Shown here: piece after piece, positions 3,305-64,000 of the stretch | Layout: each line of letters opens with the position of its first letter | Numbering within the stretch: position 1 is the first letter of the stretch | Source: an uncultured Acidobacteriota bacterium | GTDB lineage: Bacteria; Acidobacteriota; Vicinamibacteria; Vicinamibacterales; UBA2999 | Length of the DNA stretch: 64,000 bases | Reading direction: 5' to 3' | Assembly: GCA_963841905.1 (NCBI GenBank) | Contig: CAWJEM010000023.1 | Coordinates: forward strand, 984-64,983 | Made by a program: the position numbers and the translations under genes | The notes under the pieces: model-generated | What the model was told of the DNA's origin: nothing | The model's input: only the letters and a program-made list of their open reading frames with translations | Databases searched by the model: none

Positions 3305-3331
3305 GGCGCCCACCATACACCCGTCGAACAT

Positions 3332-12444: not shown

Positions 12445-12463
12445 ATTGAGACGAAACGCAACA

Positions 12464-12512
12464 CCAAGCACACGAAGGATTTCCTTGGATTTCTTCGTGG
12501 CCTTCGTGTTGG
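12464..12512. terminator. Hairpin between convergent genes built on CACGAAG / CTTCGTG units
   Basis: CCAAGCACACGAAGG (12464-12478) pairs with CCTTCGTGTTGG (12501-12512), and an additional CTTCGTG lies in the loop. It sits between the stops at 12444 (+) and 12554 (-). Confidence 0.45.
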
Positions 12513-12553
12513 ATTTTCTCGTTTCTCGAGTGAGTCTCAGGATAGGCCGCTGA

Positions 12554-18092: not shown

Positions 18093-18119
18093 ACCCGTGG
18101 TCCAGTTGAATTGAGACGA

Positions 18120-18205
18120 AACGCAACACGAAGCGCACGAAGCACACGAAGGATTTCCCTGGATTTCTTCGTGGCCTTCGTGGCCTTCATGGCCTTCGTG
18201 TTGGA
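18120..18205. terminator. Expanded CACGAAG / CCTTCGTG repeat hairpin between convergent genes
   Basis: Three CACGAAG units (18127-18152) face four CTTCGTG-like units (18166-18204). The copy-1 equivalent has fewer units. Confidence 0.45.
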
Positions 18206-18244
18206 TTTTCCCCTACTCCAGTAAGTCTCAGGGTAGGTCGCTGA

Positions 18245-31543: not shown

Positions 31544-32479
31544 GTGAAAACTTTCGCCCTGCTCAGCCTGCTGTTCCCAGCGGTTTTCGCCATTTCGGCG
31601 GGGACAGGGTTAAACCTTGTCCCCGCACAGGTTCAGCCGGACGCGCCCAACGAGTGCGCCGACTGCGCCGAATGGAATCGTCCGCTCGCACCATTCAAGG
31701 TCTTCGGCAACACCTACTACGTCGGGACCGATGGACTGTCGGCGTTGCTCATCAGTGATGAGGCGGGGCTGATCCTCCTCGACGGTGGACTGCCACAGTC
31801 GGCGCCACTCATCGATCAGAACATTCGCGCTCTCGGATTTCGCACCGAGAACGTCCGCTTCATCGGCAACTCTCATGCGCACTACGACCACGCCGGTGGG
31901 ATCGCAGCGTTGCAGCGTGTGAGCAAGGCCATGGTGGCGGCGAGCCCGGCAGGCGCACGCGCGCTCGAACGCGGCGGGCCGACAGACGACGACCCGCAGT
32001 TTGCGTTTGGCAAGTCGCAGTTGTTCCCCGCCGTGAAGGGTGTTCGCGTCATCGCCGAGGGAGAAACGTTGCGCGTCGGCAAAGCGTCGGTGACGGCTCA
32101 TTTCACTCCCGGTCATACGCCGGGCGCCACGACCTGGAGCTGGCAGTCATGCGAGGGCACGCGCTGCCTCAACATCGTGTATGCCGACAGCATCAGCGCC
32201 GTCTCGGCGCCAAACTACCGCTTCACGGCTGGCACGCCGCCGACGGCCGCCGACCGGTTTCGGGAGAGCATCGCCAAGGTCGAGCAGCTGCCCTGCGACA
32301 TTCTCTTTTCGACGCATCCGGCAGCATCGGACATGAAAGGGAAGCTGGCACGCCGACAGACGTCGCCGTCGCCAGACCCGTTTGTCGATAGCGGAAGCTG
32401 CCGCGCGTATGCCGCTGCGGCACGGAAGCGGCTCGAGGGCCGCATCGCCGAAGAAAAGACCAGCGCGCCTAAAGGTTGA
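31544..32479 (+). CDS. Subclass B3 metallo-beta-lactamase-like hydrolase
   Basis: Signal peptide (V/M)[18 protein letters not shown]. Zinc motifs [11 protein letters not shown] (HxHxDH) and HFTPGHTPG. An alternative TTG start lies at 31514. Confidence 0.8.
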
Positions 32480-32483
32480 GTCC

Positions 32484-34007
32484 ATGTCCACGGCACCGGA
32501 TTTCACACGGGCGAGCCTGTTAGACGCACAGCGGTTCGCTCAGTTTCAGAGCTACACGCTGTCCACGTCGTACGACGAGATGTTCGACAGCGACGGTGGG
32601 TCTCGACCACAGTACGACGCGCTGTTCGACCGCCTTCAGGTCATCGACACGCAGGAGATGCGGCAGCGGCAGGCAGCGGCGGATCTGGCGTTCCTCAATC
32701 AGGGAATCACATTCACGGTCTATGGCCAGAACGAAGGTACCGAGCGTATCTTCCCGTACGACCTGATTCCGCGCATCATCACCGCCCCGGAGTGGCAGGT
32801 GCTCGAGCGCGGGCTGATGCAACGCATCACCGCCCTCAATCTGTTCCTGAAAGACATCTATTTCGACGCGCGAATCCTTGCGGATCAAGTCGTTCCTCGC
32901 TCGCTGATTTACAGCTGCAAACACTTCCGCCGCGAGATGCGCGGCGTGCGCGTGCCGAACGACGTCTACGTCTCGGTGGCGGGCACAGACCTCGTGCGAC
33001 TGCCGGATGGCACGTTTGCAGTGCTCGAGGACAACCTGCGCGTGCCGAGCGGTGTCAGCTACATGCTCACCAATCGGCAGGTCATCAAGCGCATCTTTCC
33101 GCTGCTGTTTCGAAGCTACGACGTCCGCCCGGTGGATCACTACGGCCAGATGCTGCTCGCCACGCTGCGCGCTCTCGCTCCCCCGCATCGTCCGGATCCG
33201 ACCATCGTCCTCTTGACACCGGGGATGTTCAACTCGGCGTACTTCGAACATACGTTCCTCGCGCGCCAGATGGGCATTGCGCTGGTTGAGGGCCGCGATC
33301 TTTTCGTCCACGACAACGTCGTCTATATGCGGACGACGGCCGGACCGCAGCGAGTGGACGTGATCTACCGGCGGGTGGACGATGACTTCATCGATCCGCT
33401 GGCGTTTCGCGAAGACTCGACGTTGGGCGTGCCTGGTCTGTTCAACGCGTATCGAGCCGGCACGGTTGCCTTGACCAATGCGATCGGAACCGGAGTGGCC
33501 GACGACAAGGCGGTCTATGCCTACGTCCCAGCCATCATCAAGTACTACCTGAGTGAAGAGCCGATTCTCGCGAACGTTCAGACGTGGGGACTGTCGAACG
33601 AGACCGATCGCAGCTACGTCCTCGAGCGTCTCGACCAGCTCGTGGTCAAGGCCGTCGGCGAATCGGGCGGTTACGGGATGCTGATCGGGCCGCACAGCAC
33701 CGCGGCTGAGCGGGAGGAGTTCCGCCGGCGGATCACCGACGATCCTCGCAACTACATCGCGCAGCCCACGCTGGCGCTGTCCGCGGCGCCGTGCTTCATT
33801 GATGGCGTCATCGAGCCCCGCCACGTCGATCTGCGCCCCTATATCCTTTCCGGTGACAAGGTCGTGATCGTTCCAGGCGGTTTGACCAGGGTCGCGTTGC
33901 GGAAAGGCTCGCTGGTCGTAAACTCGTCGCAGGGTGGCGGCAGCAAGGACACGTGGGTGTTGAACGAACAATTTCCATCGCGCCGATCGATCGCCGGTCG
34001 CGGCTGA
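32484..34007 (+). CDS. Circularly permuted type-2 ATP-grasp protein
   Basis: 507 aa starting [13 protein letters not shown].., 4 nt after the MBL stop. N-terminal [15 protein letters not shown] and C-terminal [10 protein letters not shown] are typical of this family. Confidence 0.8.
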
Positions 34008-34015
34008 GGTCTGAG

Positions 34016-34972
34016 ATGCTCTCGAGAGTGGCGGACAGCCTGTACTGGATGGCGCGATATCTCGAACGCGCCGAGCACATCGCGCGGGTCGTCAACGTCA
34101 ATCTCAACGTCACGCTCGATCGGGCGCCTGCCGACGCGGCGCGGCATTGGGGAAGGCTGCTGGTGAGCCTGCCCGACCCGCCAGCGTGGGCGGCACCGGC
34201 GGCGGTCGATCCGCTCGAGCCGGCAACCGTCGACCTGGCCAATCGCGAGTCGATCAGCGCGTGCGTTTCGGCAGCGCGTGAAAACGCACGGCAGGTGCGT
34301 GAAGAGATCAGCTCCGAGATGTGGGAGGAGATCAATCAGCTCTATCTGGCCGTTCAGCGGAAGCAAAACGTCGATTCAGCCTGGACGGCCGGGACGCACG
34401 AATTTCTCACGTCGACGATCGGTGCGATCCATCTCTTTCAAGGCGTCACCGACGCCACGATGACGCATAGTGAGGGCTGGCACTTCATGGAACTGGGCCG
34501 GTATCTCGAACGGGCGAGCGCGACGGCGGCGCTGCTCGACGTTCAGTTTCGCGAATGCACGTGGCAGGCCGATCAATTGGCCGGTGTCAGCGAGTACATT
34601 GAGTGGGTTGGGTTGTTGAAGTCGTGCAGTGCCTTCGAGGCTTACTGCCGGCATTACACCGCTGACGTTCGGCCTTCGAGGATCGCCGAATTCCTCGTGC
34701 TCGATCCCAACTTTCCGCGATCGATCCGATTCGCCGCCGGGCGCATTCACGCGTCCCTCCGGTGCCTCGGCCCTTCCGTGACTGGAACGCGCGCGCAAGC
34801 CGAACGCGTGGCTGGGCGCCTGCTGGCATCGCTCGACTACGCGCACATCGAGGAAGTCATTAGCGATTTGCCCACCTACCTCCAGGGCATCATTCATCAG
34901 GCGGCTGACATCAATCGCGCCGTCCATCAGCAGTACGTCGCTTATCCCATCGACAGCGGGCTGACTGTCTGA
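34016..34972 (+). CDS. Alpha-E domain-containing protein
   Basis: MLSRVADSLYWMARYLERAEHIARV is the characteristic N-terminus. It immediately follows the ATP-grasp gene. Confidence 0.8.
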   Translation: MLSRVADSLYWMARYLERAEHIARVVNVNLNVTLDRAPADAARHWGRLLVSLPDPPAWAAPAAVDPLEPATVDLANRESISACVSAARENARQVREEISSEMWEEINQLYLAVQRKQNVDSAWTAGTHEFLTSTIGAIHLFQGVTDATMTHSEGWHFMELGRYLERASATAALLDVQFRECTWQADQLAGVSEYIEWVGLLKSCSAFEAYCRHYTADVRPSRIAEFLVLDPNFPRSIRFAAGRIHASLRCLGPSVTGTRAQAERVAGRLLASLDYAHIEEVISDLPTYLQGIIHQAADINRAVHQQYVAYPIDSGLTV

Positions 34973-34985
34973 TCCGTACACACCG

Positions 34986-35948
34986 GTGTCTACCCATTAC
35001 ACGATTCGCCATCAGACCCGTTTCAGCTACGCGGCTGCGGTTTACGAAAGCGTCATCGAGTGTCGCATGCGACCAGCCGGCGAAGGACTGCAACGCTGTC
35101 TGCAGTTCGACCTGGATGTGAAACCGGCCGCGCGCGTCTTTGCGTTTCGTGATTTCGCCGGCAACTGGGTCCACCACTTCAACCTTTCGCGGGCACACAC
35201 CGAGTTGCTCGTAACGGCGAGCGCCCAAGTCGAGGTCGAGGCTCCACAATCGCCGCCCTCCCTGTCGATCGACAGCTGGCGCATGGTCGAGGAGTGGAAC
35301 GCCCGCGATCAGCATTGGGATTTCGTGCAACCCAGCCAATTTGCCGACTGGTCGCCGGCGTTGCTTGAATTCGAGCGGTCGGTGTGTTGCGGCGACCGGC
35401 AACACGATCCGCTGACAACCGCGCGTCAGACCATGGCCGCTGTTCACGACGCCTTCGAATACCTTCCCAAGAGCACGCGAGTCGATTCCACGATTGACGA
35501 CGTGCTCACATCGCGACGAGGCGTGTGCCAGGACTTTGCGCATGTGATGCTTGCGGTCCTGCGGCGTCGAGGACTTCCCTGCCGTTATGTGAGCGGCTAC
35601 ATCGCGCCGTCCAGGGAGGACGATGGGATGAGGCGCGCGAGCGCCACGCACGCGTGGGTGGAAGTGCTGCTGCCGGACATCGGGTGGCTGGGCCTGGATC
35701 CCACGCACAACATCGAAGCGGGCATCCGTCATGTTCGCGTCGCCGTCGGTCGGGATTACGCCGACGTCCCACCGACACGCGGCACCTTCAAGGGCGGCGC
35801 GGCCGGGGAGTTGTCGGTGGCGGTGACGATCGACACGACCGATCGCCCGCCATCGGATGCGGCGATGGAGTTCTGGACGGCGTGGCCGGCCTCCTCGCCC
35901 GACGCGGCAGACCGGGCTGACCATCAGGCGCAGCAACAGCAGCAGTAG
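34986..35948 (+). CDS. Transglutaminase-family protein (Cys-His-Asp core)
   Basis: RRGVCQDFAHVMLAVLR..HAWVEV..GLDPTH, with an N-terminal Bact_transglu_N-like region. GTG start. Confidence 0.8.
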   Translation: MSTHYTIRHQTRFSYAAAVYESVIECRMRPAGEGLQRCLQFDLDVKPAARVFAFRDFAGNWVHHFNLSRAHTELLVTASAQVEVEAPQSPPSLSIDSWRMVEEWNARDQHWDFVQPSQFADWSPALLEFERSVCCGDRQHDPLTTARQTMAAVHDAFEYLPKSTRVDSTIDDVLTSRRGVCQDFAHVMLAVLRRRGLPCRYVSGYIAPSREDDGMRRASATHAWVEVLLPDIGWLGLDPTHNIEAGIRHVRVAVGRDYADVPPTRGTFKGGAAGELSVAVTIDTTDRPPSDAAMEFWTAWPASSPDAADRADHQAQQQQQ

Positions 35949-49632: not shown

Positions 49633-50916
49633 TCAGAAGCGAATCCTGGCGCCGAGCTGCACCGGCAATGACCAGCGCGAGCTCTCGCTGTTGATGTCGC
49701 GCAGGCCCTCCTCGACGAGCCAGTCGACATCCGACAGGCCGCCCATGAAGCGGATCTGCGTTTCAGCCATGACCTCGAAGGGGCCAAGACCGATGAGCAC
49801 GCCGCCAGTGGGGCCAAAGCTCAACGCCCAGGACTTCTCGAAAAACTTGCCGTCCTGGGCCGCGAGGCCGGGCGTGACATTGGCGGGCACATCGACGAAG
49901 GTTCCCGTGATGTCGTCGTGCCGGTTGATGCCGACCAGGTACCCCACGTAGGGCGTGAACCGGACCCGCGCAAAGAAGAAGCGCTGGCCGCCTTCGAACC
50001 CCCAGTAGTTGTAGTCGCCGAAGTCCACCAAGAGCGGCACGTTGCCCGTACCCGCGGTGCCGATGTTGACGAGCTCCGACGAACTCCGCGAGATGATGAG
50101 GTTGACCACCGCTTCACTGCGCGGGCTCGTGCGGTAGCCGACGCCAATCTTGAAGTTCGCCATGCGGCCGTACACGTCATCGAAGGTGGTCTCGTTCAGG
50201 TTGATCGGCGCGCCCGTGGTCGTCTGCCCGGTCGCATCCTGGATCATTTTGCCGCTGAACTGGTTGTCCCAGCCCCAGAGGGCCGAGATCGTGAACCGAT
50301 GCCGAAAATCCTCGGTGGCGTCCACCTGCACCGCCGTCCGCGATTCGACCGCGAGGCGAGCCGCTTCGGTCCGGGTCACGTCCACGCGATCGCCCACCTT
50401 GAGCGCCGCCAGGACGCTGGCGTCCGTCGTCTCCAGCAGCCGGCGCTGGTAACTCGCGCCGCTCGGGCCGGTGAACGTCACCACGCGCGTGGCAGGGTCC
50501 CACCCCGTGAGGGTGACCGTCGTCACGCGCTGCGTCGCGACCGTGGCGCCGGGCAGCGCGCCGGGCGTGGCCGTCGTCACCGGCGGCTCGGTCCGGTCCA
50601 CCGCGGCCTCGCCGGGCGGCTTCGGGCGGATGCTCACGCGGTCGTAGTACGACACGCTCACGACGTCACCGACCTGGACCTGGTCGAGGCGCGTGACCGA
50701 CTGCGGGACGTCGAGGGTGACGACGTTTCCCTGATCCCCGCGGATGGTGACCGTCCGGGCGGTGGTGTCGACGGCCTCCACCTTCCCGCGAAGCGTGATC
50801 TGGTTGCTGGCCGCCTGCTTCTGTGCGCTTGCAGCAACGTTCTGTGCGCTTGCAGCGGTGGCTGACACAACCATGGACAAAAGCATCAATAGTGTGGGTT
50901 TGAAAAACTTCAACAC
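49633..50916 (-). CDS. Outer-membrane beta-barrel protein with N-terminal tandem small beta-sandwich domains
   Basis: Signal peptide MLKFFKPTLLMLLSMVVSATAASAQ. Two ..VEAVD..ARTVTIRGDQGNVVTLDV..VGDVV.. modules resemble 51299..51850. The C-terminal half has alternating beta-strand patterns and a terminal ..GARIRF. Confidence 0.7.
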   Translation of the reverse strand: MLKFFKPTLLMLLSMVVSATAASAQNVAASAQKQAASNQITLRGKVEAVDTTARTVTIRGDQGNVVTLDVPQSVTRLDQVQVGDVVSVSYYDRVSIRPKPPGEAAVDRTEPPVTTATPGALPGATVATQRVTTVTLTGWDPATRVVTFTGPSGASYQRRLLETTDASVLAALKVGDRVDVTRTEAARLAVESRTAVQVDATEDFRHRFTISALWGWDNQFSGKMIQDATGQTTTGAPINLNETTFDDVYGRMANFKIGVGYRTSPRSEAVVNLIISRSSSELVNIGTAGTGNVPLLVDFGDYNYWGFEGGQRFFFARVRFTPYVGYLVGINRHDDITGTFVDVPANVTPGLAAQDGKFFEKSWALSFGPTGGVLIGLGPFEVMAETQIRFMGGLSDVDWLVEEGLRDINSESSRWSLPVQLGARIRF

Positions 50917-51298: not shown

Positions 51299-51850
51299 CT
51301 ACTTACCGGGCTCGACCGACACCAGCACCGCTTCGGTCCAGACGATGTCGAACTTGTCGCCGACCTTGACCTTGGCGAGTGCCTCCTTGTCCACCACTTT
51401 GGACGTGTACTTCAAGCCGGTCGGCCCGGTGAAGGTGACCGACGGCACCTCCATATTGATGGCCGCAATCGTGGCCGTGATGGTCATCTGCCTGGCTTTG
51501 GTGCCACCTGGCAGGACCTGCTCGCCAGGGGTCGTGGCCTTCGAGGCGCTGGCGACGTCCGGCTCGCCGGGCCGCTTCAGCCGGACGACGACGTTCTCGT
51601 AATAGCGAGCGGTGACTTTGTCGCCGACCTTGAGCTCGGCGAAGCGCTTGATGTCCGGCCCGGCGACGGTCGACACGACGGTGCCGTCCGCCTTCTTGAG
51701 CGTGACCGTGCGGGTCGCGGCATCGATCGCTTCAACGGTGCCCGTCTCCGTTCTCATCTCTGACGAGATCGTCTTGGCCTGGGCCGAGACCGTCCTGGCC
51801 GTCGACACCAGAACTGCCACTGCAATGACTCCTACGACAAACCGTTTCAT
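51299..51850 (-). CDS. Periplasmic tandem beta-sandwich protein (DUF1344-like?; paralogue A)
   Basis: AGGAGGA RBS and ATG 51850. Signal peptide MKRFVVGVIAVAVLVSTARTVSAQ. Two ..TGTVEAID..TRTVTLKKADGT..VGDKV.. modules. Confidence 0.75.
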   Translation of the reverse strand: MKRFVVGVIAVAVLVSTARTVSAQAKTISSEMRTETGTVEAIDAATRTVTLKKADGTVVSTVAGPDIKRFAELKVGDKVTARYYENVVVRLKRPGEPDVASASKATTPGEQVLPGGTKARQMTITATIAAINMEVPSVTFTGPTGLKYTSKVVDKEALAKVKVGDKFDIVWTEAVLVSVEPGK

Positions 51851-52290
51851 ACGTCCTCCTAGTCCCGCCTTGACGTCCCTTTTTCCAACTGATCCGACTG
51901 AACTGAATCCCAGTGCCACGCCAGCCCCCGTGAAGGCGAGGGCTGACCGCTCACGTCGCGGGTTTGCGAACCCTTCGCAGAGCGGCGAGGCGAGCATGGG
52001 CCCGCGTAACACCAGACCTAGCGGGCGAAGTAGCACCGAATCGTCAGAGCAGCCCACGTAGCGCGTCCATGGACTTCTGTGCGACCGAAGCGCCCTCGGC
52101 GATCAGAGGGTCGACGGCACGATGCAGCCGATCACCCCAGCGAACACATACTTTGCAGACCGCTTGCCATGGCGCGGAGAAAGTGGAAATGGCCCGATTC
52201 ATTCATGATTTCACCGCGTGCCGCCGTTTGCGCCCCAAAACCGCCGGCGCGGGCTCCCCCACCGGACGGAGGACGCCCGTAATACAGTGG
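51851..52290 (-). other. Conserved long 5' leader of paralogue A
   Basis: Alignable by eye with 61887-62215 (blocks GGCTGACCGCTCACGTCGCGGG, CCATGGACTTCTGTGCGACCGAAGCGCCCTCGGCGATCAGAGG, GATTTCACCGCGTGCC). This copy carries a ~105-nt insertion (51961-52066). No conserved ORF. Confidence 0.5.
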
Positions 52291-52930
52291 GCGATCGCTT
52301 CTCCCGTTCCTCGCGTCTGATCTCGCACGGGAATCAGAATTGCGTACCGCTCAGTCAGACGGACGTGCAGGATGCCAGCAACAGTGACCTGATGCGCTCC
52401 GACATCCTGTCTCCCGAAAGTTTGGCGTCGATGCAGGGCGACCTGCACGTGAGCGCTGCGGGAGCGGATCGCCTGGCTTCAACCGCCGAAGCATTCCCCC
52501 GCTCGCAATGAACGAGCGACGGATCGTCCTCGACGAAGTGAGTCGGCAGCGAGCCCTGAGTTGGCCGCGTCGATTGATGCCCTGCGTGGTGAGCGCGCCG
52601 TCGTCGTCGACGACTCATGTCACATCGTCGATGTGGTCTTGGTGCGCGTGGCCATATTCCTCATCGCCGCGGTGGTGCTCGCGCCGCTCGTCGCTCACGC
52701 CTACGCTCGTGTCTGGCCCCGGCGAAGGCGCGAGCCGCAGCCATGATCGATAAGCAAGCGCTCAGGTGCACTCCTGATTCGGGACCCTGTCGTTCGGAGA
52801 TCCTCCGGAATAACGGAGGCGCCGCTGGGACAAACGGAGACATGCCGCGGCCTGTCTGTTAGCAGTCAACGACTTGAGGGAAACCTCCGACGGCGCGTGG
52901 GTGGCACTCGGCGTGCTCCAAGCCTTGCGA

Positions 52931-54505
52931 ATGACGTCAATATGCAGACAAGACGCAGCAGCCCGAGAGAATACGAAACCCCTTGGCGCCCGCCTGGCGG
53001 CGGCCCTTGTGCTCGGGATGTTTTCGGTGGCTTCAATGGCCGCGCAGAGCGCCCAGCAGGCCCCGTCCTCTCCTCCAGATGCCGCACAGACTCCTGTGAC
53101 GTCGCTGACGTGCACATCCAAGCCAGGTGAACGCTCGCAGTGCGCGGCGGACACGTCGAAAGGGGTTGTGCTGTTGCGATCGATGGGCGACGCGCCGTGT
53201 CTACTCGGAAGGACCTGGGGCTACGACCAGACCAGCGTGTGGGTCTCGGACGGCTGCAGCGCCGAATTCGGCACCGCCTCTGTCGTGCAACCGCAGACGA
53301 CGAAGCCCAAGGCGCCCACTCACGTTCCGAACGTGGGCTTTCTCCTCTTCGACGGCGAGAAGGGCCAGATCTATTTCCGGCTCTTCAGCTACGGGCGATA
53401 TCTGAACCAGCGGAATCTGGACGAGTCCTACGTTGACGCTTTCGGCAACGAGAAGACCGTTCAACGGCGCCAGGACGTCCAACTGCAGAAGTTCTTCGCG
53501 CCGTTCTCGGGGTGGTTCCTCACGCCGAAGATGCGCTACTACCTTTACGTCTGGTCGTCGAACGCCTCGCAGGGCGACCCCGCCCAGGTCGTCGGGGCGG
53601 GCAACTTGACGTGGAGCTTCAACCGGTTCGTCAGCGTGGGTGTCGGCATCACGTCGCTGCCTACCGTCCGAAGCACAGAGGGTCAGTTTCCGTTCTGGCT
53701 CGGCGTGGACAACCGCCTGATTGCCGATGAGTTCTTCCGCGGGTCGTACACCTCCGGCGTCTGGCTCAAAGGCGAGTTCCATACCAAGGTCAAGTACATG
53801 GCGATGTTCGCCAACAACCTGAGCACGCTCGGCGTGAGCGCGGCGCAGATCGACAACAAATTCGACACGCAGTCCTACTCGGTCCAATGGCTCCCGACGA
53901 CCGGCGAGTTCGGACTGTGGAACACGTTCGGCGACTACGACGATCACGAGAACGTCGCGACGCGGATCGGCGTGCACTACAGCAGCAGCCGCGAGGAAAA
54001 GCAAAGCCAGCCGGGAACCGAAGGCATCGAGAACAGCCAGATCCGGCTGACGGACGGGAGCGTCATCTTCACCCCGGATCTGTTTGGACCCGGCATCACC
54101 GTCAACGAAGTCGACTATCGGATGATGAGCATCGATGCGGGCGTCAAGTACCAGGGCCTGTCTCTCGAGGGCGAGTACTACTGGCGCTGGTTGAGCAACT
54201 ACACCGGCGTCAATACGAGTGGTATTCCCGACATCAACGACGACGGCTATCAGCTGCAGGCGTCGGCGATGGTCGTTCCCAAGATTCTTCAACTGTACTT
54301 CGGCGCCTCGCAGGTGTTCGGCCGCTTCGGCGACCAGTGGGAAGTGCGAGCGGGGGAGAACTGGTACCTGATGAAGGAGCGCGGGATTCGCCTCAACGGC
54401 GAGTGGATGTACGTGAACAAATCACCCGTCGGATACACGGCATATCCCTACCCGGTCGGCGCCAAGGGCAACGTGTTCCACATCAACCTCGAGCTGAACT
54501 TCTGA
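52931..54505 (+). CDS. Outer-membrane porin (phosphate-selective porin O/P-like) with N-terminal DUF3011-like Cys-rich domain
   Basis: ..LTCTSKPGERSQCAADTSKGVVLLRSMGDAPCLLGRTWGYDQTSVWVSDGCSAEF.., then a long beta-barrel ending ..NVFHINLELNF. The start is uncertain (ATG 52931 or TTG 52874). Confidence 0.7.
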   Translation: MTSICRQDAAARENTKPLGARLAAALVLGMFSVASMAAQSAQQAPSSPPDAAQTPVTSLTCTSKPGERSQCAADTSKGVVLLRSMGDAPCLLGRTWGYDQTSVWVSDGCSAEFGTASVVQPQTTKPKAPTHVPNVGFLLFDGEKGQIYFRLFSYGRYLNQRNLDESYVDAFGNEKTVQRRQDVQLQKFFAPFSGWFLTPKMRYYLYVWSSNASQGDPAQVVGAGNLTWSFNRFVSVGVGITSLPTVRSTEGQFPFWLGVDNRLIADEFFRGSYTSGVWLKGEFHTKVKYMAMFANNLSTLGVSAAQIDNKFDTQSYSVQWLPTTGEFGLWNTFGDYDDHENVATRIGVHYSSSREEKQSQPGTEGIENSQIRLTDGSVIFTPDLFGPGITVNEVDYRMMSIDAGVKYQGLSLEGEYYWRWLSNYTGVNTSGIPDINDDGYQLQASAMVVPKILQLYFGASQVFGRFGDQWEVRAGENWYLMKERGIRLNGEWMYVNKSPVGYTAYPYPVGAKGNVFHINLELNF

Positions 54506-54519: not shown

Positions 54520-55651
54520 ATGACGCACAGAACTTGGTCCCGTTCGGCGGCTGTTCTCGGTGCCTTCTGCGCGCTGACGCTGCTGGTGCTCGCCTTCGTC
54601 CGCGCGCGTCCGCTCGACGCACAGGGCCAGGGTGCCGGCAACGAGTTCCACGACTCACATTTCCACGTCACGAACTACATCCAGCAGGGCATCCAGACGA
54701 AGCAGTTCCTGGAGATCATGGGGAACCGGGTGGGCCGATCGACGCTGTTCGGCATCCCGCTGCAACAGCAATGGTCGCACGCGAACTCCGGCGATTTCGC
54801 GCCGACTTACTATCTGCACACCGACGCGCCGCTCTACTACTACTCGTTCACCGACGCCTACATCGCCAGCGCCTACCGCGCGCTGCCAAAGGAGGCCCAG
54901 GCGCGGTTCGACCCAATGATCACCGGCTTCAATCCCGCCGACATGTACGGCGTCGACCACATTCGGCGTGTTCTCACCACCTTCCCCGGTGTCTTCACCG
55001 GCATTGGCGAGTTCAGCATCCACAAGGAGTTCGTCTCCTCGAAGATTGCCGGCGAGACCGCCAGCCTGATCAACCCGGCGCTCGACCGGATACTCGCCTT
55101 CGCGGCGGAGACCGGCCTCGTCGTCATCCTGCACAACGACATCGACATGCCGTTCGGCAAGGTCGACACCGAGCCGGTTTACCTCACGCAGATGAAGGAT
55201 CTGCTGAAGCGGCATCCGAAGAGCACGATTATCTGGGCACACACCGGCCTCGGGCGGATTGTCCGTCCGGTGCAGGTCTCGGCGGAGGCCGCCGAGCGCA
55301 CGCCGACACACCTCGAGATCCTCGAGGGCATGCTCAAGGACCCGTCGCTGCGTCACGTCGTCTTCGACATCTCGTGGGACGAAGTGGCGAAGTACGCGGT
55401 CTCGTCGCCGGAAGTGACCGCGCGAGTGGTCACCCTCTTCAACCAGCACTCCGACCGATTCCTCTTCGGCACCGACACCGTTGCGCCGTCCGGCCCGAAG
55501 CCGGTACTACGCGGTCTTCGATCAGTGGGCTCCGGTTTGGAAGGGGCTCACGCCGGAGGCGAGCCGCAGGATTCGCACGGGCAACTACGAGCGGATGTTC
55601 GACGAAGGACGCCGAAGAGTCCGCGCCTGGGAAGCAGCAAACGTGAAATGA
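54520..55651 (+). pseudogene. Secreted amidohydrolase-family (TIM-barrel metal hydrolase) gene with one frame break
   Basis: GAGGTGA RBS and ATG 54520, with a signal peptide. FHDSHFHV motif. The C-terminus YYAVFDQWAPVWKGLTPEASRRIRTGNYERMF is in another frame from about 55500, with TGA at 55649-55651. Confidence 0.75.
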
Positions 55652-55678
55652 AGCCATCAAAAAACTTGGAGGATACCA

Positions 55679-57859
55679 ATGGGTAAACGTGTTCGGATTC
55701 TGGCTGTCCGGGCGTGCGTGCTCGGTCTGGGAGCGCTCGCGTTGGCGAAACCGTCGAGCGCACAATCGCCAGCCGAGATCCAGCAGGCGGTCGACGCGGC
55801 ATACGCAAAGTTCAGGACCCTCAAGGAGGGTAAGAACGCCGACTACATTCCTGCGCTCGCCAAGGTCGATCCGGACCTGTTCGGAATCGCCGTGGTCACA
55901 GCCGACGGCAAGGTCTACGTCGCGGGTGACGTGAAGACCGAGGTTTCGATCCAGTCGATCTCCAAGGTCTTCACGATGGCCCAGGTCATCCAGGAGCAGG
56001 GGGTGGACGCGATCGAGAAACGCATCGGGGTCGACGCCACGGGCGCACGGTTCAACTCGATTATCGCGGTTGAAGCCGTCAGGACCGTCGCCGGCTCAGG
56101 GGCGCCGGAGATGAACCCGCTGGTGAATCCGGGGGCGATATCGGCGACGAGCATGGTGACGGGAGCGACATCGGATGCGGTGTGGACGAAGATCATCGGC
56201 TTTCACAACGACGCCGCGGGACGACCGCTGACCGTGCTGCAGGACGTCTACAAGTCCGAGTCCGACACGAACCAGCGCAACCAGGCCATCGGCGCGCTCA
56301 TGCTCGCGTACGGTTACATCAAAGGCGACTGGCGGCAGGCGGTCGACCTCTACACTCGTCAGTGCTCCATTGGGGTGAACGCCAACGATCTGGCGACGAT
56401 GGCGGCAACGCTGGCAGCGGGCGGCAGGAATCCGGTCACCGGCAGACAGGTCATTGACGCCGCAAAGGTCCCCAGCGTCCTCGCCGTCATGTCCACCGCC
56501 GGACTGTACGACGACTCGGGGAAGTGGCTCTACCACACAGGTCTTCCGGCCAAGAGCGGCGTCGGCGGCGGCATCATCGCCGTGTCGCCCGGCAAGTTCG
56601 GCATCGCCGTCATCTCCCCGCCGCTCGATGACGCCGGCAACAGCGTGAGGGCGCAGCGCGCCATCGCCGATATTTCGACGGCGCTCGGTGGCAACCCATA
56701 CGGCGCGAGAACGGCGACGGCCCAGCCAGCGGAGCCGAAGCCGAGCCTCGAGATTTACGGATTTGCGATGCTCGACATCGGCCACGACTTCAAACAGATC
56801 GACCCGAACTGGTTCGACACCATGCGCCTCACCAAGCTGCCGTCCGTCGCGGATGAGTTCGGGGAGGATCACAACACGTTCGCCGGCGTGCGCCAAAGCC
56901 GCCTTGGCGTGCGCTCGTCGACGCCAACAGCGGTAGGCGAGTTGAAGACCACCTTCGAGTTCGAGCTGTTCGGCACCGGTGTGGACGAAGGCCAGACGAC
57001 CTTTCGCCTGCGGCATGCGTACGGCGAGCTGGGGGCGTTCGGCGCGGGGCAGACGTGGAGCCCGTTCATGGATCCTGACGTGTTCCCGAACTCGCTCGAA
57101 TACTGGGGGCCCACCGGGATGGTGTTCTTCCGCAACGTCCAGGTGCGCTGGATGCCGGTTCAAGGCGAGCACGCCGTGACACTGGCCCTCGAGCGTCCGG
57201 GCGCGAGCGGCGATCAAGGTGTCTACTCGGACCGCGTCGAGCTGGAGGACATCACTCCGCGCTTCCCGCTGCCTGACTTCTCCGGCTCGTACAAGTACTC
57301 GCAGGACTGGGGCTACGTGCGCGCCGCCGGCATGCTCAGCGTGATCAAGTGGGACGACAACCTCGACGACCGGTTCGACTTCTCGGGCGACGCGACCGGT
57401 TGGGGCCTGAACCTCAGCACGAACCTGAAGGCTGGCGAGAGTAACGTGTTCCGGTTCCAGTTCGTGGTCGGGGAGGGCATCCAGAACTACATGAACGACT
57501 CTCCCGTGGACATCGGCATTGTCAACAACCCGGGCGATGCGATCAGGCCTCTCCTTGGCGAGCCCATTCCCCTCGTCGGCATCGTGGCGTTCCTCGATCA
57601 CACGTGGAGCGAGAAGTTCAGCAGTGCGATCGGATATTCGTGGCAGGACAACGACAACACCGAAGCACAGGCACCTGACGCGTTCAAGACCGGTCACTAT
57701 GCGCTCGGTAACCTGCTGTATTACCCGGCGCCGAATGTGATGGTTGGCGGGGAGCTCCAGTGGGGGCGTCGAGAGAACTTCTCCGACGGTTTCCAGAGTG
57801 ACGGCCTCAAGGCGCAGTTCTCGTTCAAGTACAACTTCTCATGGAAGCTTGGAGGGTAG
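55679..57859 (+). CDS. Glutaminase A domain fused to a C-terminal porin-like (DcaP-like?) beta-barrel
   Basis: Signal peptide. Glutaminase core (SIQSISKVFT.., ..GLPAKSGVGGGIIAV..) to about residue 340, then the linker TATAQPAEPKPS. After that, ~380 aa of beta-barrel-like sequence ending ..KAQFSFKYNFSWKLGG. Confidence 0.75.
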   Translation: MGKRVRILAVRACVLGLGALALAKPSSAQSPAEIQQAVDAAYAKFRTLKEGKNADYIPALAKVDPDLFGIAVVTADGKVYVAGDVKTEVSIQSISKVFTMAQVIQEQGVDAIEKRIGVDATGARFNSIIAVEAVRTVAGSGAPEMNPLVNPGAISATSMVTGATSDAVWTKIIGFHNDAAGRPLTVLQDVYKSESDTNQRNQAIGALMLAYGYIKGDWRQAVDLYTRQCSIGVNANDLATMAATLAAGGRNPVTGRQVIDAAKVPSVLAVMSTAGLYDDSGKWLYHTGLPAKSGVGGGIIAVSPGKFGIAVISPPLDDAGNSVRAQRAIADISTALGGNPYGARTATAQPAEPKPSLEIYGFAMLDIGHDFKQIDPNWFDTMRLTKLPSVADEFGEDHNTFAGVRQSRLGVRSSTPTAVGELKTTFEFELFGTGVDEGQTTFRLRHAYGELGAFGAGQTWSPFMDPDVFPNSLEYWGPTGMVFFRNVQVRWMPVQGEHAVTLALERPGASGDQGVYSDRVELEDITPRFPLPDFSGSYKYSQDWGYVRAAGMLSVIKWDDNLDDRFDFSGDATGWGLNLSTNLKAGESNVFRFQFVVGEGIQNYMNDSPVDIGIVNNPGDAIRPLLGEPIPLVGIVAFLDHTWSEKFSSAIGYSWQDNDNTEAQAPDAFKTGHYALGNLLYYPAPNVMVGGELQWGRRENFSDGFQSDGLKAQFSFKYNFSWKLGG

Positions 57860-57861: not shown

Positions 57862-58908
57862 ATGACTCGACGCACTCGAATTGTCTCGGTCGGCGCGTGC
57901 GCGCTCGCTCTCGGGATGCTGGCCCTCAGGGTCACGCAACTTGACGCGCAGTCGGGCGCCGAAGTCCAGCAGGCCGTGGACAACGCCCACGCGAAGTTCA
58001 GAACGCTGCAGGAAGGCAAGAATGCCGACTACATCCCGGCCCTGGCGAAGGTCGATCCCAATCTCTTCGGCATCGCGGTGGTGACTGCCGACGGCAAGGT
58101 CTACACAGCCGGTGATGTGAAGACGGAGGTCTCGATCCAGTCGATCTCGAAAGTCTTCACGATGGCTCAGGTGATCCAGGAACAGGGGCTCGAGTCGATC
58201 GAGAAGCGTATCGGCGTTGACGCGACCGGCGCCCGCTTCAACTCGATCATCGCGGTCGAGGGTGTTCGCACGGTCGTCGGTAGCGGCGCACCGGAGATGA
58301 ATCCTCTGGTCAACCCCGGGGCCATCTCGGCGACCAGTATGGTCAGGGGAGCAACGTCCGACGAAGTCTGGAAGAAGATCATCGGATTCCACAACGACGC
58401 GGCGGGACGTCAGCTGAGCGTGTTGCAGGATGTCTACAAGTCCGAGTCCGACACCAATCAGCGCAACCAGGCGATTGGTGCCCTCATGCTCGCCTACGGC
58501 TACATCAAGGACAACTGGCAGCAGGCGGTCGATCTCTATACGCGTCAATGCTCGATTGGCGTGAATGCGAGCGACCTGGCGACCATGGCGGGGACCCTGG
58601 CGTTCGCCGGCACGAACCCGGTCACGAAGAAGCAAGTGCTGGACGCGGCTAAAGTGCCCGGCGTTCTCGCGGTGATGGCTACCGCCGGACTCTATGACGA
58701 CTCCGGCAAGTGGCTGTATCTGACGGGGCTTCCCGCAAAGAGCGGCGTTGGCGGAGGAATCATCGCGGTGGCTCCAGGGAAGTTCGGCATTGCCGTCGTG
58801 TCGCCTCCGCTGGACGATGCGGGAAACAGCGTCCGCGCGCAGCGGGCGATCGCGGCCATCTCGAACCAGCTTGGCGGCAACCCGTACTTGGCGGCCAAGG
58901 CCCGCTAG
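57862..58908 (+). CDS. glsA: Secreted glutaminase A (stand-alone paralogue)
   Basis: GGAGGG RBS inside the upstream gene's end. MTRRTRIVSVGACALALGMLAL signal peptide. About 80% identical by eye to the N-domain of 55679..57859. Confidence 0.85.
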   Translation: MTRRTRIVSVGACALALGMLALRVTQLDAQSGAEVQQAVDNAHAKFRTLQEGKNADYIPALAKVDPNLFGIAVVTADGKVYTAGDVKTEVSIQSISKVFTMAQVIQEQGLESIEKRIGVDATGARFNSIIAVEGVRTVVGSGAPEMNPLVNPGAISATSMVRGATSDEVWKKIIGFHNDAAGRQLSVLQDVYKSESDTNQRNQAIGALMLAYGYIKDNWQQAVDLYTRQCSIGVNASDLATMAGTLAFAGTNPVTKKQVLDAAKVPGVLAVMATAGLYDDSGKWLYLTGLPAKSGVGGGIIAVAPGKFGIAVVSPPLDDAGNSVRAQRAIAAISNQLGGNPYLAAKAR

Positions 58909-58925: not shown

Positions 58926-59966
58926 TTGTGCGCTCCCGATTGGCTGCCGCCGGCGATTGTGACCATCGCCTTGGCATTGTCAATGACGGCGACGACGCAT
59001 GCCCAGGGCCGAACCGACGTCGTGACCCTGGCTAACGGCGATCGGATTACGGGCGAGATCGTGCAACTCGAGCGGGGGAGACTCGAGTTCAAGACCGACG
59101 ACGCCGGCACGCTCTATCTGGAGTGGGACAAGGTCTCGAGCCTCGTGGCGACGCGTCTGGTCGAAGTGCTCACCACCGATGGCCGCCGGTTCCTGGGCAG
59201 CCTCGGACAAGCGGGCGTCAGATCGATCGCGGTCGTGACCTCTGGAGAAGAGGTACCGCTTCAGATGTCGGAGGTGACATTGATCACCCCGATCGGAGCG
59301 AGTTTCTGGCGCCAGCTCGATGGGTCGTTCGACGCGGGGTTCAGCTATACCCGGTCCAGCGGTGTTGCGCAGCTCAATCTGAATTCGGACACCGTGTACC
59401 GCCAGCTCGCGTCGCGGACACGGCTTACCGCGTCGCTCACCCAGACGAAGAAAGACGATGATTCGGGTCGCGACGATCGGGGGACCGTGGAAATGTCCTA
59501 TCTGCGATACCCCTGGTCGCGTTGGTTCATCCTGACGGCCGGCCGGTTCGAGACCAATGAGAGCCTCGGGCTGACGCTGCGGTCGCAGATCGGTGCCGCC
59601 TCCGGACCCCGTCTGATCAACAGCAATCGCGCGCAACTCGTGCTCGGCGCCGGGCTGGCATTCAACCAGGAGCAGGGGGTGGATGTCGAAACCACGCAGA
59701 ACGTCGAGGCGCTCTTCATGTTCGAGACCTCGTTCTACACCTACGATCGGCCCAAAACGAACCTCGACCTCAGCTTTCAGTACTACCCGAGCCTGAACAA
59801 CATCGGCCGTCAGCGGGTGCAGCTCGACGCCGGTGTCAAACGGGAACTCTGGAAGGATTTCTTCGCCGCGCTCAGTCTATACAACACGTACGACAACCGG
59901 CCCCCGAACCCGGCGGCCGATACCAACGATGTTGGAATCGTGCTGTCGATCGGCTGGACCTATTAA
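58926..59966 (+). CDS. DUF481 (YdiY-like) outer-membrane protein
   Basis: ..DVVTLANGDRITGEIVQLERGRLEFKTDDAGTLYLEWDKV.. N-terminal signature, and a beta-barrel ending ..VLSIGWTY. The start is uncertain (TTG 58926 or GTG 58959). Confidence 0.7.
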   Translation: MCAPDWLPPAIVTIALALSMTATTHAQGRTDVVTLANGDRITGEIVQLERGRLEFKTDDAGTLYLEWDKVSSLVATRLVEVLTTDGRRFLGSLGQAGVRSIAVVTSGEEVPLQMSEVTLITPIGASFWRQLDGSFDAGFSYTRSSGVAQLNLNSDTVYRQLASRTRLTASLTQTKKDDDSGRDDRGTVEMSYLRYPWSRWFILTAGRFETNESLGLTLRSQIGAASGPRLINSNRAQLVLGAGLAFNQEQGVDVETTQNVEALFMFETSFYTYDRPKTNLDLSFQYYPSLNNIGRQRVQLDAGVKRELWKDFFAALSLYNTYDNRPPNPAADTNDVGIVLSIGWTY

Positions 59967-60581
59967 GGAGTGCGGGGCGCAAGCGGCAGCACCGGTCGCC
60001 CTTTTTGCATCGCTGCCACGAGGTCTCTCGACCCTGAGCCCCAGCGCGAGATGGACCTGATGGCTTGGGTGAAGGGGACGTCGAGGATGTGCACCCGTTC
60101 AGGGCGGCAGAACGTATACGGCTCCAGCGAGCGGTGTAGGCACCGACGGAACGAAGACGGTCAACCGGCCGTCATCGAGCACCTCGATGATGAACGCCGG
60201 GACGAGCGCCTCCTCGATTTCGACCAGTGCCGGCGTCCACGCACTCTCGTCACTATCTCCCGCCATCCGCTGAGTCAGGCTGCGGAGCAAGCTGTACCCG
60301 GGAAGTCTCTCGAAGAACGCAATCTCCAGGCGCTCGCGAGCCGCGCGCCCCGATCGCGTGCGCATGGCGACGCCGACGAGGAAACAGATCGTCAGAATCA
60401 GCACCAGAGAGAAGAAACCCTCGGCCGGGATCCAGTCAGGGAGGAGCGCTGCGAGTGGCCGGACCAGACCCGCGACCGACGCCATGCCCTTGAGCAGCAG
60501 CAGTACCGCCAGGTAGACGGGCACTACGATGAGCAAACCCCCAACGAGTGTGCTCGTGACGAACTCGCGCACGTATCTCAT
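59963..60581 (-). pseudogene. DUF502 membrane protein with one frame break near its C-terminus
   Basis: MRYVREFVTSTLVGGLLIVVPVYLAVLLLL.. The ORF stops after ..GAVYVLPP at 60099, while the expected continuation ERVHILDVPFTQAIRSISRWG.. follows in the next frame down to TAA 59963-59965. Confidence 0.7.
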
Positions 60582-61334: not shown

Positions 61335-61886
61335 CTACTTGCCGGGCTCGACCGACACCAGCACTGCTTCGGTCCAGACGATGTCGAACTTGTCGCCGAC
61401 CTTGACCTTGGCGAGTGCCTCCTTGTCCACCACTTTGGACGTGTACTTCCAGCCGGTCGGCCCGGTGAAAGTGACCGACGGCACCTCTGGGTTGATGGCC
61501 GTAATCGTGGCCGTGATGGTCACCTGCTTGGCTTTCGTGCCACCCGGCAGGACCTGCTCGGCAGGGGTCGTCGCCTTCGAGGCGCTCGCGACGTCCGGCT
61601 CGCCGGGCCGCTTCAGCCGGACGACGACGTTCTCGTAAAAACGAGCGGTGACCTTGTCGCCGACCTTGAGCTCCGCGAAGCGCTTGATGTCTGGCCCGGC
61701 GACGGTCGTCACGAAGGTGCCGTCCGCTTTCTTGAGCGTGACCGTGCGGGTTGCGGCCTCGATCGCCTCGACGGTGCCCGTCTCCGTTCGCATCTCTGAC
61801 GAGATCGTCTTGGCCTGGGCCATGGCCGTCTGGGCCGTTGACCCCAGAAAAGCCGCTGCAATGATTCCTACGACAAACCGTTTCAT
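61335..61886 (-). CDS. Periplasmic tandem beta-sandwich protein (paralogue B)
   Basis: About 90% identical to 51299..51850 by eye. AGGAGGA RBS and ATG 61886. Confidence 0.75.
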   Translation of the reverse strand: MKRFVVGIIAAAFLGSTAQTAMAQAKTISSEMRTETGTVEAIEAATRTVTLKKADGTFVTTVAGPDIKRFAELKVGDKVTARFYENVVVRLKRPGEPDVASASKATTPAEQVLPGGTKAKQVTITATITAINPEVPSVTFTGPTGWKYTSKVVDKEALAKVKVGDKFDIVWTEAVLVSVEPGK

Positions 61887-62215
61887 GTGTGTCCTCCTAG
61901 TCCCGTCTTGACGCGCGTTTCCTTTCCAACTGACTGAATCCAGTGCCACGCCAGCCACCGTGAAGGCGGGGGCTGACCGCTCACGTCGCGGGCCCATGGA
62001 CTTCTGTGCGACCGAAGCGCCCTCGGCGATCAGAGGATCGACGGCAGGTTGCAGCCGATCACCCCAGCGAACACCCGCGCTACGCTGCAGACCACTTGCC
62101 ATTACGTGGGGAGGTCGAAATGGCCAGATTCATTGAGGATTTCACCGCGTGCCACTTGTTTGTGCGGGAACGGCCGGCGCTGCTCACCCCACCGGACGGA
62201 GGGCGTCCGAAATGA
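61887..62215 (-). other. Conserved long 5' leader of paralogue B
   Basis: See 51851-52290. It is preceded (62344-62400) by a ~55-nt relic resembling the 3' end of yet another paralogue (..GVDIVWTEALLVLFES). Confidence 0.5.
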
Positions 62216-62415: not shown

Positions 62416-63243
62416 CTAGCGGACGAAGCGACGCCTGACAGTCAGGGCGAACCCCATCGACAGCAACACGACACTCGCGAGTCCGATGGCCGGCCATGAG
62501 CTGGCGGTCTTCGGCAGTGTCCTGGCGCCACCCGTCGCTGCGCCGGGGGCCGCTGATGCCGTTTTGGCGCCAGCTGCGGACGAGGCCCCAGCTGTGGACG
62601 GGGCTGCTGCTCCTCCCGCCGGACGTGCGCCGCCACCTGCGCTGGCAGCCGCGCCGCCACCTGCTTTGGCACCGCCAGCACCTGCGCCGCCGGCGGCGGC
62701 GCCGCTAGCTGCAAGGGTGGCCTGCACTTCCTTCTCCGTCAGGACCTGCGGCGGCTTCGTCGTAATGATGGTCGCGCTCAGCCGATCGCCGCGACGAAAG
62801 TCAGACACGCTCGCGGGCTTGCCGCTGCGCATGATCTTCACGCCGCGCTTGTCTACCTCACTTTGCGTGAACGATCGGATTCCCTCGTCGGTCCGTACGA
62901 TGATGGTGGAACCGGCAGTCTCCATTACGGTGCCGTTCTTGACCTCCGTCACGGTGACTGGCGTGACCGTCGTTCGCGTCGTAATGGTGGCCGTGCCTTT
63001 CATGCCCGGCTTCAGCTGTTGCACGGACAACGGCTGTCCGTTGACGGTGAAGCGAAAGTCATCGGGGACCGTCAGCTCCCTCGTGCCTTCCGGCAGCCGG
63101 ACGACCAGCAGGTTGCCCTCCACCATGAGCACTTCAAATGTCTTGGTTTCCGTCGAGCTCGTAGGCTGCTGCCCCAACGACACGACGGCCGTCGAACACA
63201 CGACCGCCGCGGCCAGGGCCATCCGAACTATTGCACGTGTCAT
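62416..63243 (-). CDS. Sortase substrate: secreted tandem beta-sandwich protein with Ala/Gly-rich stalk and C-terminal LPKTAS sorting signal
   Basis: Signal peptide MTRAIVRMALAAAVVCSTAVVSLGQ. The C-terminus is ..RTLPKTAS-SWPAIGLASVVLLSMGFALTV-RRRFVR: motif at 62500-62517, hydrophobic span, basic tail. Confidence 0.75.
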   Translation of the reverse strand: MTRAIVRMALAAAVVCSTAVVSLGQQPTSSTETKTFEVLMVEGNLLVVRLPEGTRELTVPDDFRFTVNGQPLSVQQLKPGMKGTATITTRTTVTPVTVTEVKNGTVMETAGSTIIVRTDEGIRSFTQSEVDKRGVKIMRSGKPASVSDFRRGDRLSATIITTKPPQVLTEKEVQATLAASGAAAGGAGAGGAKAGGGAAASAGGGARPAGGAAAPSTAGASSAAGAKTASAAPGAATGGARTLPKTASSWPAIGLASVVLLSMGFALTVRRRFVR

Positions 63244-64000
63244 AAGCCTCTCTCCATTCTGCTCTGCATGCTTTGCGCGAACATTTCCGAGACGTGAGAA
63301 GACCAGAAGAAAGCGACAAACCGCTCGTTTCCGCACCGGGGACAAGGAACGGGTTTAGTGGATAGCGGCGAGTACGCCGTTGTGTCGCGGATACGCACGG
63401 CACGGACGATGAACCGCTGGGGAGCGGAGCCGACGAAGTAGAAGGGATAGCAGGTGACCAGCGTCAGCGCCCGCGTCGGCGTCGGGTCCAGCACCGAGAC
63501 GTCCTCCGGTTCGACCACCCACGTTCGCTCGACGCGATAGAACTCCTTCCCCTGGAGGGTGTCGAGCTCGATCGCATCACCCGGGTTGACGTCCTTCAGT
63601 CCGCGGAAGAAGCTATCGCGGTGCCCGGCGATGCCCGAGTTACCGTCCGTACCTGGTTGTGCCGTGTCCTCGATGTGACCGACGGCTCTATCGAGCGTCC
63701 GATCGTCGGTGCCGGGCAGCACCGGCACCTCGAGTCGAATCTTCGGAATTCGCAGCACCGCGATAGGAGCGGGGGCGGGTTCGCTCAGGGCTTTACGCCA
63801 GGCGCTGACGCGATTTGGGGACCAAAGGGACTGGTCTGGCGTGCCAGCCTGCGTCGTAACAACCTGAAGTGCCGCGAAGCGCTCCAGATCGTGCCGGGTC
63901 GAGGAGGCAACCTCGATGTGGGACGCGCCCCACCACACCAGGCCAACAAGGCCGAATGCCCAGCTCGTTCTCTCCGCGAGAAGAAGAAGACGACGACGTA
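63240..64000 (-). CDS. Sortase-family transpeptidase, 5' end beyond the window
   Basis: N-terminal TM (RRRLLLL..WAFGLVGLVWWG), IAGHRDSFF (His), TLVTCYPF (TLxTC Cys) and RFIVRAVR (Arg). The stop TGA overlaps the substrate's ATG (ATGA at 63240-63243). Confidence 0.8.
   Translation of the reverse strand, partial: RRRLLLLAERTSWAFGLVGLVWWGASHIEVASSTRHDLERFAALQVVTTQAGTPDQSLWSPNRVSAWRKALSEPAPAPIAVLRIPKIRLEVPVLPGTDDRTLDRAVGHIEDTAQPGTDGNSGIAGHRDSFFRGLKDVNPGDAIELDTLQGKEFYRVERTWVVEPEDVSVLDPTPTRALTLVTCYPFYFVGSAPQRFIVRAVRIRDTTAYSPLSTKPVPCPRCGNERFVAFFWSSHVSEMFAQSMQSRMERGL

Follow-up and report, generated by a model that had tools for sequence, protein, structure and literature searches.

A glutaminase joined in frame to a DcaP-type outer-membrane porin in soil Acidobacteriota: a candidate porin-tethered periplasmic enzyme

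Introduction

In the genome of an uncultured Acidobacteriota bacterium, a single reading frame appears to encode both an exported glutaminase and an outer-membrane channel, raising the question of whether this join is genuine, how it arose, and what a cell would do with an enzyme attached to a pore. The gene lies at positions 55679-57859 of the 64,000-nucleotide stretch of DNA analysed here (hereafter the window). A preliminary description, made from the letters alone, had proposed that the enzyme is tethered to the periplasmic face of the porin, where it would couple uptake and deamidation, that a stand-alone secreted glutaminase follows, and that no such protein had been described. In what follows, these proposals are examined in the light of profile searches, structure models, related genomes and metagenomes, and phylogenetic tests.

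Domain organisation of the fusion protein

The fusion gene (55679-57859, plus strand) is stop-free throughout, is preceded by a GGAGG motif at 55669-55673, and encodes a protein of 726 aa in which the list of open reading frames, the profile matches and the structure model delineate a signal peptide, a glutaminase, a linker and a DcaP-type porin. Residues 1-28 (55679-55762, plus strand) constitute a predicted Sec-type signal peptide with a basic N-region, a hydrophobic core and a putative SSA/Q cleavage site. A basic and hydrophobic leader was detected by a heuristic test in all 54 full-length fusions, AxA-Q being present in 47, and a heuristic motif check of the leaders of the full-length fusions found neither a Tat motif nor a lipobox. 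The glutaminase A domain, of the YbaS type, covers residues 29-341 (55763-56701, plus strand), as delimited by Pfam, NCBIfam and an alignment with YbaS. More precisely, the Pfam Glutaminase profile (PF04960) matches residues 51-337 with an E-value of 1.7e-100 (336 bits against a cut-off of 27), and the NCBIfam glutaminase A profile PRK12356 scores 422.6 bits (cut-off 395). With both profiles over their cut-offs and a leader in place, the complete glutaminase and the signal peptide announced for this 726-aa frame are confirmed. The S93-x-x-K96 motif aligns to S66 and K69 of YbaS, and ten residues of the enzyme (Y56, Q92, S93, K96, N150, E194, N201, Y225, Y277 and V295) are invariant in 64/64 fusions; those other than the serine and the YIP tyrosine we take to have active-site roles as well.

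The two domains are separated by a linker of 16 residues rich in Ala, Pro, Ser, Thr and Gln (residues 342-357; 56702-56749, plus strand), whose letters are those first given for the Pro/Ala stretch and which is bridged by a contig from an RNA library. Across the family, the linker measures 12-25 aa (median 15) with about 46% column conservation; it looks like the N-terminal tail that mature free porins carry, contains no internal signal peptide in the fusions checked, and shows no helix in the full-length model. The remainder of the protein, residues 356-726 (56744-57856, plus strand), is a DcaP-family outer-membrane barrel according to Pfam, the structure model and the alignment with the DcaP structure 6EUS, the Pfam DcaP profile (PF19577) matching residues 406-703 with an E-value of 7.6e-20 (71.7 bits against a cut-off of 27). 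The only cysteines of the fusion protein are C13 and C229, 216 residues apart, with no heme motif, and no autotransporter Pfam matches it. Finally, the median dN/dS amounts to 0.10 for the fused enzyme, 0.07 for the free enzyme and 0.18 for the barrel (28 pairs, 8 loci); both domains of the fusion are thus under purifying selection.

Structure of the barrel and its pore

Structure prediction of the C-terminal region, one of the checks that the preliminary description had named, yields a transmembrane barrel: modelled alone from a 39-row alignment, it displays 16 long strands with a pLDDT of 87.3, a long loop coming after strand 1 and the short turns lying on the N-terminal side. The full-length model is of lower quality (pLDDT 66.9, pTM 0.51), its enzyme half being poorly resolved, and a structure search with it ranks YbaS (1U60) first and DcaP (6EUS) second. 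The barrel of this full-length model superposes on 6EUS with a Z score of 32.5 and an rmsd of 2.8 A over 330 aligned residues, the next barrel reaching a Z of 22.8, and within the PDB the barrel profile matches 6EUS only. Together with the PF19577 match, these results bear out the porin-like barrel that had been recognised from its alternating pattern.

R408, R443, R445 and R485 align to the constriction arginines R114, R148, R150 and R189 of DcaP (numbering counted from the printed alignment), and these four pore arginines, which line one wall, are invariant in 64/64 fusions. The positions of the DcaP arginines, as well as the periplasmic location of the DcaP N-terminus, come from the study of that porin (10.1101/306035). 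Since the short turns of the modelled barrel lie on its N-terminal side, as expected from the periplasmic N-terminus of DcaP, the enzyme would sit on the periplasmic side of the outer membrane. A complex prediction combining the barrel (354-726) and the enzyme (29-343) returned a score of 0.01 for a mark of 0.32, which weighs on neither side.

Reality and distribution of the join

The fusion is real and conserved. Within the best 120 of 7131 clusters of homologues, formed at 90% identity from three sources, 78 carry both domains and 66 a near-complete glutaminase; 74 of the 79 long homologue matches carry the glutaminase Pfam, nine having been inspected individually. In metagenomes searched with a degenerate pattern that spans the junction and does not enforce the frame, 17/17 junction matches present both halves in one frame, and the in-frame join was found in 12 GTDB genomes. 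The same architecture therefore recurs in databases, and the earlier statement that the frame is continuous, the fusion being no product of frame breaks, is upheld. In 5/12 of these genomes (four of the class and G056), indels break the fusion gene elsewhere, never at the join, and in indel-rich genomes the neighbour genes are broken as often as the fusion gene. Close homologues are assigned to Vicinamibacterales or Acidobacteriota, and no distant full-length fusion appeared among the best 150 representatives at 50% clustering.

Support around the junction was sought in four sequencing runs at the level of assembled contigs rather than raw reads. A contig of the RNA library, which may contain DNA, spans 56612-56791 gaplessly with five differing letters; it attests presence in that library and is no measure of transcript level. 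The runs containing the stretch derive from soil and rhizosphere.

Other joins between neighbouring genes were also encountered, all singletons with garbled or frameshifted sequence or with an internal signal peptide kept. In the 25 residues that precede the barrel, the maximum 12-residue hydropathy of 63 true fusions is at most 1.07, whereas two read-throughs, for which 60 residues were scanned, reach 2.66 and 2.08. The amidohydrolase-porin candidates P0124, P0126, P0127 and P0136 and the porin-glutaminase candidate P0133 were accordingly rejected as true fusions, being singleton read-throughs.

The free glutaminase and the host genome

The stand-alone secreted glutaminase expected downstream is indeed present, its start being corrected: it comprises 348 aa with its own signal peptide (57862-58908, plus strand; profile matches), most likely starting at the ATG at 57862 rather than at 57841, and the GGAGG of this ATG sits inside the last codons of the fusion. 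Compared with the fused domain, its identity amounts to 87.8% at the protein level and 78% at the DNA level, values that argue against a collapsed repeat. A free glutaminase follows the fusion in 13/17 metagenome loci (13/16 of those with downstream sequence visible), and directly so in 10/12 genomes; in G381 it comes after a second free porin. It is absent from L111, L114 and L120, which belong to one close lineage (L125 and L127, related to them, have retained it), and none was found in G056 (87% complete), so that an obligatory free paralogue is ruled out.

The host genome (5.58 Mb, 96.9% complete) contains no glutaminases other than these two, plus two additional DcaP-like matches and the ammonium transporter Amt. 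In the same genome, no match to glutamate decarboxylase (TIGR01788) was found, and GadC is not over its cut-off (TIGR00910, best 93 bits against 673.5). A second, free DcaP-type porin (L027; G000 C11:673893-675038) shares 59% identity with the fused barrel; neither a glutaminase nor any gene of the cassette lies within 18 kb of it.

The surrounding gene cassette

The fusion belongs to a cassette whose first gene (52874-54505, plus strand) encodes a protein with a DUF3011 profile match and a probable second outer-membrane barrel, recognised from sequence only; it has counterparts in 49/80 loci. Next comes an exported amidohydrolase-2 family protein (PF04909; 54520-55646, plus strand; 53/80 related loci), which is highly conserved. 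Its gene contains one frame break near 55495-55503; as the contigs of 3/4 runs have one base fewer at 55503 and lack the break, it is probably an assembly error. The last cassette gene (58953-59966, plus strand; profile match, 21/80 loci) encodes a DUF481 outer-membrane protein and is followed by a terminator-like hairpin at 59983-59999, the number of hairpins not being above chance. No sigma-70 site was detected on the plus strand, no sigma-54-like site exceeded chance, and this cassette contains no inner-membrane transporter.

Genomic context was assessed in the best 80 of 646 GTDB loci of the porin subfamily, a non-independent sample in which 19 loci are from Flavobacterium and two genomes occur twice. 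Among these best 80, glutaminase is found at 56, amidohydrolase at 53, a second barrel-like gene at 49, aspartase at 37, type II asparaginase at 34, and the carriers DASS and AspT at 10 and 8, respectively; 72 have at least one of glutaminase, asparaginase II and aspartase within 8 kb. The usual layout is a free porin then a free exported glutaminase, which starts less than 400 bp after the barrel in 52 of the best 80 loci. By a crude test that had no negative control, a hydrophobic leader was assigned to 58/61 glutaminases, 33/34 asparaginases II and 25/34 aspartases. These neighbour enzymes, mostly provided with such a leader, link the porin subfamily to the liberation of ammonia from Gln, Asn and Asp in the periplasm, and the products of these reactions are dicarboxylates, which are favoured by DcaP-type pores (10.1101/306035; PMC12338516). 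The cassette occurs in at least seven phyla. Of 401 genomes sampled from the class, the module is present in 58 and the in-frame fusion in 7, counting the join-spanning matches, which alone were inspected; most carriers hence do without the fusion. In Flavobacterium isolates (L065:9173-10618 and L078:10648-11712), an aspartate ammonia-lyase with an apparent signal peptide stands beside type II asparaginase and the same porin.

Several other features of the window deserve mention. The cassette is flanked by two close paralogues (51299-52057 and 61335-62102) encoding a small exported protein with weak CusF-like matches, and the ORF at 49633-50916 begins with a related domain. A pair of AlkZ-like and MacB/FtsX genes is repeated at 11323-14971 and 16989-20662, and a row of circularly permuted ATP-grasp, alpha-E and transglutaminase-like genes occupies 32382-35948. 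At 62416-63998, a sortase gene is adjacent to one for a protein ending in an LPKTA motif, a hydrophobic stretch and a basic tail, in a host that has an outer membrane. Finally, a penicillin amidase gene (1176-3331) is split across two frames, probably by another assembly indel.

Origin of the fusion

While the common gene order is amidohydrolase, porin, glutaminase, the fused loci read amidohydrolase, glutaminase::porin, glutaminase. This arrangement looks like the outcome of a tandem duplication of a porin-glutaminase pair: the first glutaminase would have been fused in frame to the second porin at its mature start, with loss of the first porin. The locus L033 (45% GC) has kept porin, fusion and glutaminase, with a 2.16-kb duplication at 90%; in its relative L103, the first porin is missing. 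At both loci, leader, enzyme and barrel all resemble the local free copies.

Phylogenetic tests were performed on 42/79 enzyme rows, drawn from a quick tree of 79, and on 36-37/98 barrel rows, near-duplicates and distant rows being omitted; the groups compared were picked after the trees had been seen. A single clade of fused enzymes is rejected (p-AU 0.004), a rejection that disappears when two low-GC free copies are left out (p 0.45). A single clade of fused barrels is rejected as well: the first value (p 0.00016) was inflated by the near-identical free barrel of L033, and the rerun that left it out gave a p-AU of 0.0003. For the high-GC fusions, one origin is not rejected for the enzymes (p 0.54) or for the barrels (p 0.38), so that a spread of the fused enzyme module onto unrelated barrels within this group finds no support. 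Judging from these sequences, the fusion seems to have arisen at least twice, in lineages of 63% and 45% GC; transfer then gene conversion could also account for the pattern.

Free and fused barrels share 98% and 96% DNA identity at L033:6129-10483 and L162:4560-10144, respectively, where the glutaminase copies share 83-84%; gene conversion, mixed trimers and assembly homogenisation are the options for these near-identical barrels. The median fourfold-site divergence is 0.335 for the fused glutaminases, 0.476 for the barrels, 0.516 for the free enzymes and 0.435 for the amidohydrolase, at similar GC, in a comparison of window 55763-56701 with L032, L043, L116, L122, L125, L165, L033 and L103.

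Proposed function and alternative explanations

The reading that we favour, with moderate confidence, is that of a porin-tethered periplasmic glutaminase, active under the pore and splitting glutamine to glutamate and ammonia. The protein would be exported by Sec and its barrel would be integrated into the outer membrane, probably in the trimeric state known from DcaP, the glutaminase replacing the periplasmic coiled coil of DcaP and hanging under the pore on a flexible tether of 12-25 residues. Glutamine reaching the periplasm would be hydrolysed there to glutamate and ammonia, and the arginine-lined pore would handle carboxylate species, with glutamine entering and/or glutamate leaving. The main gain would be ammonia, providing nitrogen through Amt and possibly a periplasmic pH buffer. 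The variable linker suggests a loose tether rather than tight channelling, with plausible benefits in local capture and in keeping the enzyme in place. Concerning the coupling of uptake and deamidation proposed in the preliminary description, the anatomy and the periplasmic position stand on the barrel topology and the DcaP N-terminus, and the coupling itself we infer as the likeliest reading. However, DcaP is strongly anion-selective and DcaP-type pores favour dicarboxylates (10.1101/306035; PMC12338516). Given that the kept arginines favour anions in DcaP, the pore may pass glutamate better than glutamine; such selectivity does not favour neutral glutamine as cargo and counts against the tethered-glutaminase reading.

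Family glutaminases, including YbaS, crystallise as D2 tetramers (PMC8130709). A tetrameric enzyme on a trimeric porin such as DcaP implies that the tethered domains need partners to complete their oligomer, probably the free paralogue or the tethered domains of neighbouring trimers. A bolder proposal, which we hold to be rather unlikely, is that this symmetry mismatch drives assembly: porin trimers and D2 enzyme would recruit the free paralogue or cross-link into a porin-enzyme array, the unfused cassette also forming a pore-side complex. If this were true, the free enzyme would tune the ratio, the nearly identical free barrels of L033 and L162 could form mixed trimers, and the fusion would mark a widespread porin/deamidase cassette as a pore-side complex that removes ammonia, within the periplasm, from glutamine, asparagine and aspartate.

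Among the other explanations of the tethered glutaminase, the one with the most to be said for it, though we still think it unlikely, is a tolerated by-product of duplication, in which the halves work as in the unfused operon and the join merely saves a signal peptide and adds an enzyme copy, with no coupling. The prevalence of the unfused pair, the rarity of the fusion among module-bearing genomes and the variability of the linker all agree with it; besides, no alignment column fully separates fused from free barrels, and selection on each domain says nothing on selection for the join. The join has nevertheless persisted over synonymous distances of about 0.3-1.1 and occurs in the two lineages of 63% and 45% GC, whereas reverse and other neighbour fusions are the noisy singletons described above. 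As for an assembly or frameshift artefact, the assembly does contain frame breaks (54520-55646) and five genomes carry indels inside the fusion gene, but these are off the join, and the recurrence of the fusion in 78 independent 90% clusters from three sources, together with the 17/17 in-frame matches to a frame-blind pattern, refutes this reading, which we regard as practically discarded.

Surface display, in which the barrel would export the glutaminase to the cell surface, draws on the order of signal peptide, enzyme and C-terminal barrel found in classical autotransporters. Yet the barrel has 16 strands and matches DcaP rather than a 12-stranded autotransporter barrel, it retains a long L3-type loop as well as the constriction arginines, the linker is helix-free and as short as 12 residues, and free barrels about 80% identical exist that carry no passenger, making this explanation very improbable. 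Product exit with acid relief appears improbable too, if less so: glutamine would enter via any pore, ammonia would buffer the periplasm and the barrel would release glutamate, as a periplasmic analogue of the YbaS/GadC cycle. It is in line with the kept arginine ladder, with the lack of an inner-membrane carrier in this cassette, and with the closest solved relative of the enzyme being the acid glutaminase YbaS, for which pH 4-6 is reported (PMC6250119). Conversely, the 96.9% complete host genome gives no match to glutamate decarboxylase and no GadC above the cut-off, and related loci often add uptake carriers (DASS and AspT, as counted above), which points to retention of the product.

Returning to the porin-tethered glutaminase, the fusion provides access, through a single gene, to an undescribed cassette by which soil bacteria may free ammonia from amide amino acids within the periplasm. 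More generally, it opens the question of whether tethering an enzyme under an outer-membrane pore raises the capture of dilute substrate, for which nature provides fused and unfused versions of about 80% identity side by side, and one genome that retains the duplication intermediate.

Comparison with known systems

The statement that no example had been described holds in part. In the open literature covered, through listings and the starts of abstracts, no description was found of a glutaminase-porin fusion or of a soluble metabolic hydrolase on a diffusion porin; in databases, on the other hand, these proteins already carry the annotation of both Pfam domains. The enzyme-porin fusion is thus apparently undescribed, each half belonging to a known family, and the present analysis adds four points: an intermediate of the duplication, support for two separate origins, the conservation of the arginine ladder, and a free paralogue that is optional.

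Type Va autotransporters possess a 12-stranded barrel with a helical linker running through the pore; the fusion, with its 16 strands, its helix-free linker and no autotransporter Pfam match, is not one of them. Periplasmic deamidation before uptake is exemplified by AnsB, the periplasmic glutaminase-asparaginase of Pseudomonas, associated with amino-acid uptake. Unlike the fused enzyme, AnsB has the asparaginase fold, is soluble and is unattached to a pore.

With E. coli YbaS/GlsA (1U60), its best solved match (E 3.7e-84), the enzyme half has the SxxK and YIP motifs in common. In the glutamine-dependent acid-resistance system AR2_Q, which includes the antiporter GadC and usually GadB, YbaS is reported to be intracellular (PMC6250119), while the fused enzyme is predicted to be exported and is joined to a pore; its signal peptide, the lack of a GadB match and the absence of a GadC over the cut-off led us to reject it as an AR2_Q component. 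The nearest design encountered is that of the redox protein Cyc2, a cytochrome-porin which, according to its description (PMC13741234), likewise combines in a single chain a porin barrel and, N-terminal to it, a catalytic domain in the periplasm. Its N-terminal part is a small heme domain devoted to electron transfer (PMC13741234), whereas the fusion carries a full oligomeric hydrolase, and membership in Cyc2 was discarded for want of a heme motif and with two cysteines only.

ScrY and FapF are trimeric barrels with a periplasmic N-terminal domain, that of ScrY having been proposed as a substrate sink; as described in the DcaP study (10.1101/306035), their coiled coils are non-catalytic, while in the fusion the sink would be an enzyme. 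DcaP of Acinetobacter baumannii (6EUS) remains the closest parallel for the barrel half, sharing the 16-stranded barrel, the periplasmic N-terminus and the four constriction arginines (10.1101/306035). The identity between the two is about 20%, and in place of the N-terminal coiled coil of DcaP, which is absent from the fusion and from the closest free barrels, where only a short tail is found, stands an enzyme of 313 aa. Besides, the fusion has a tyrosine at the position of Phe179 and six residues beyond the phenylalanine that ends DcaP, and, whereas the setting of DcaP consists of dicarboxylate catabolism genes, the neighbours of the fusion are deamidases.
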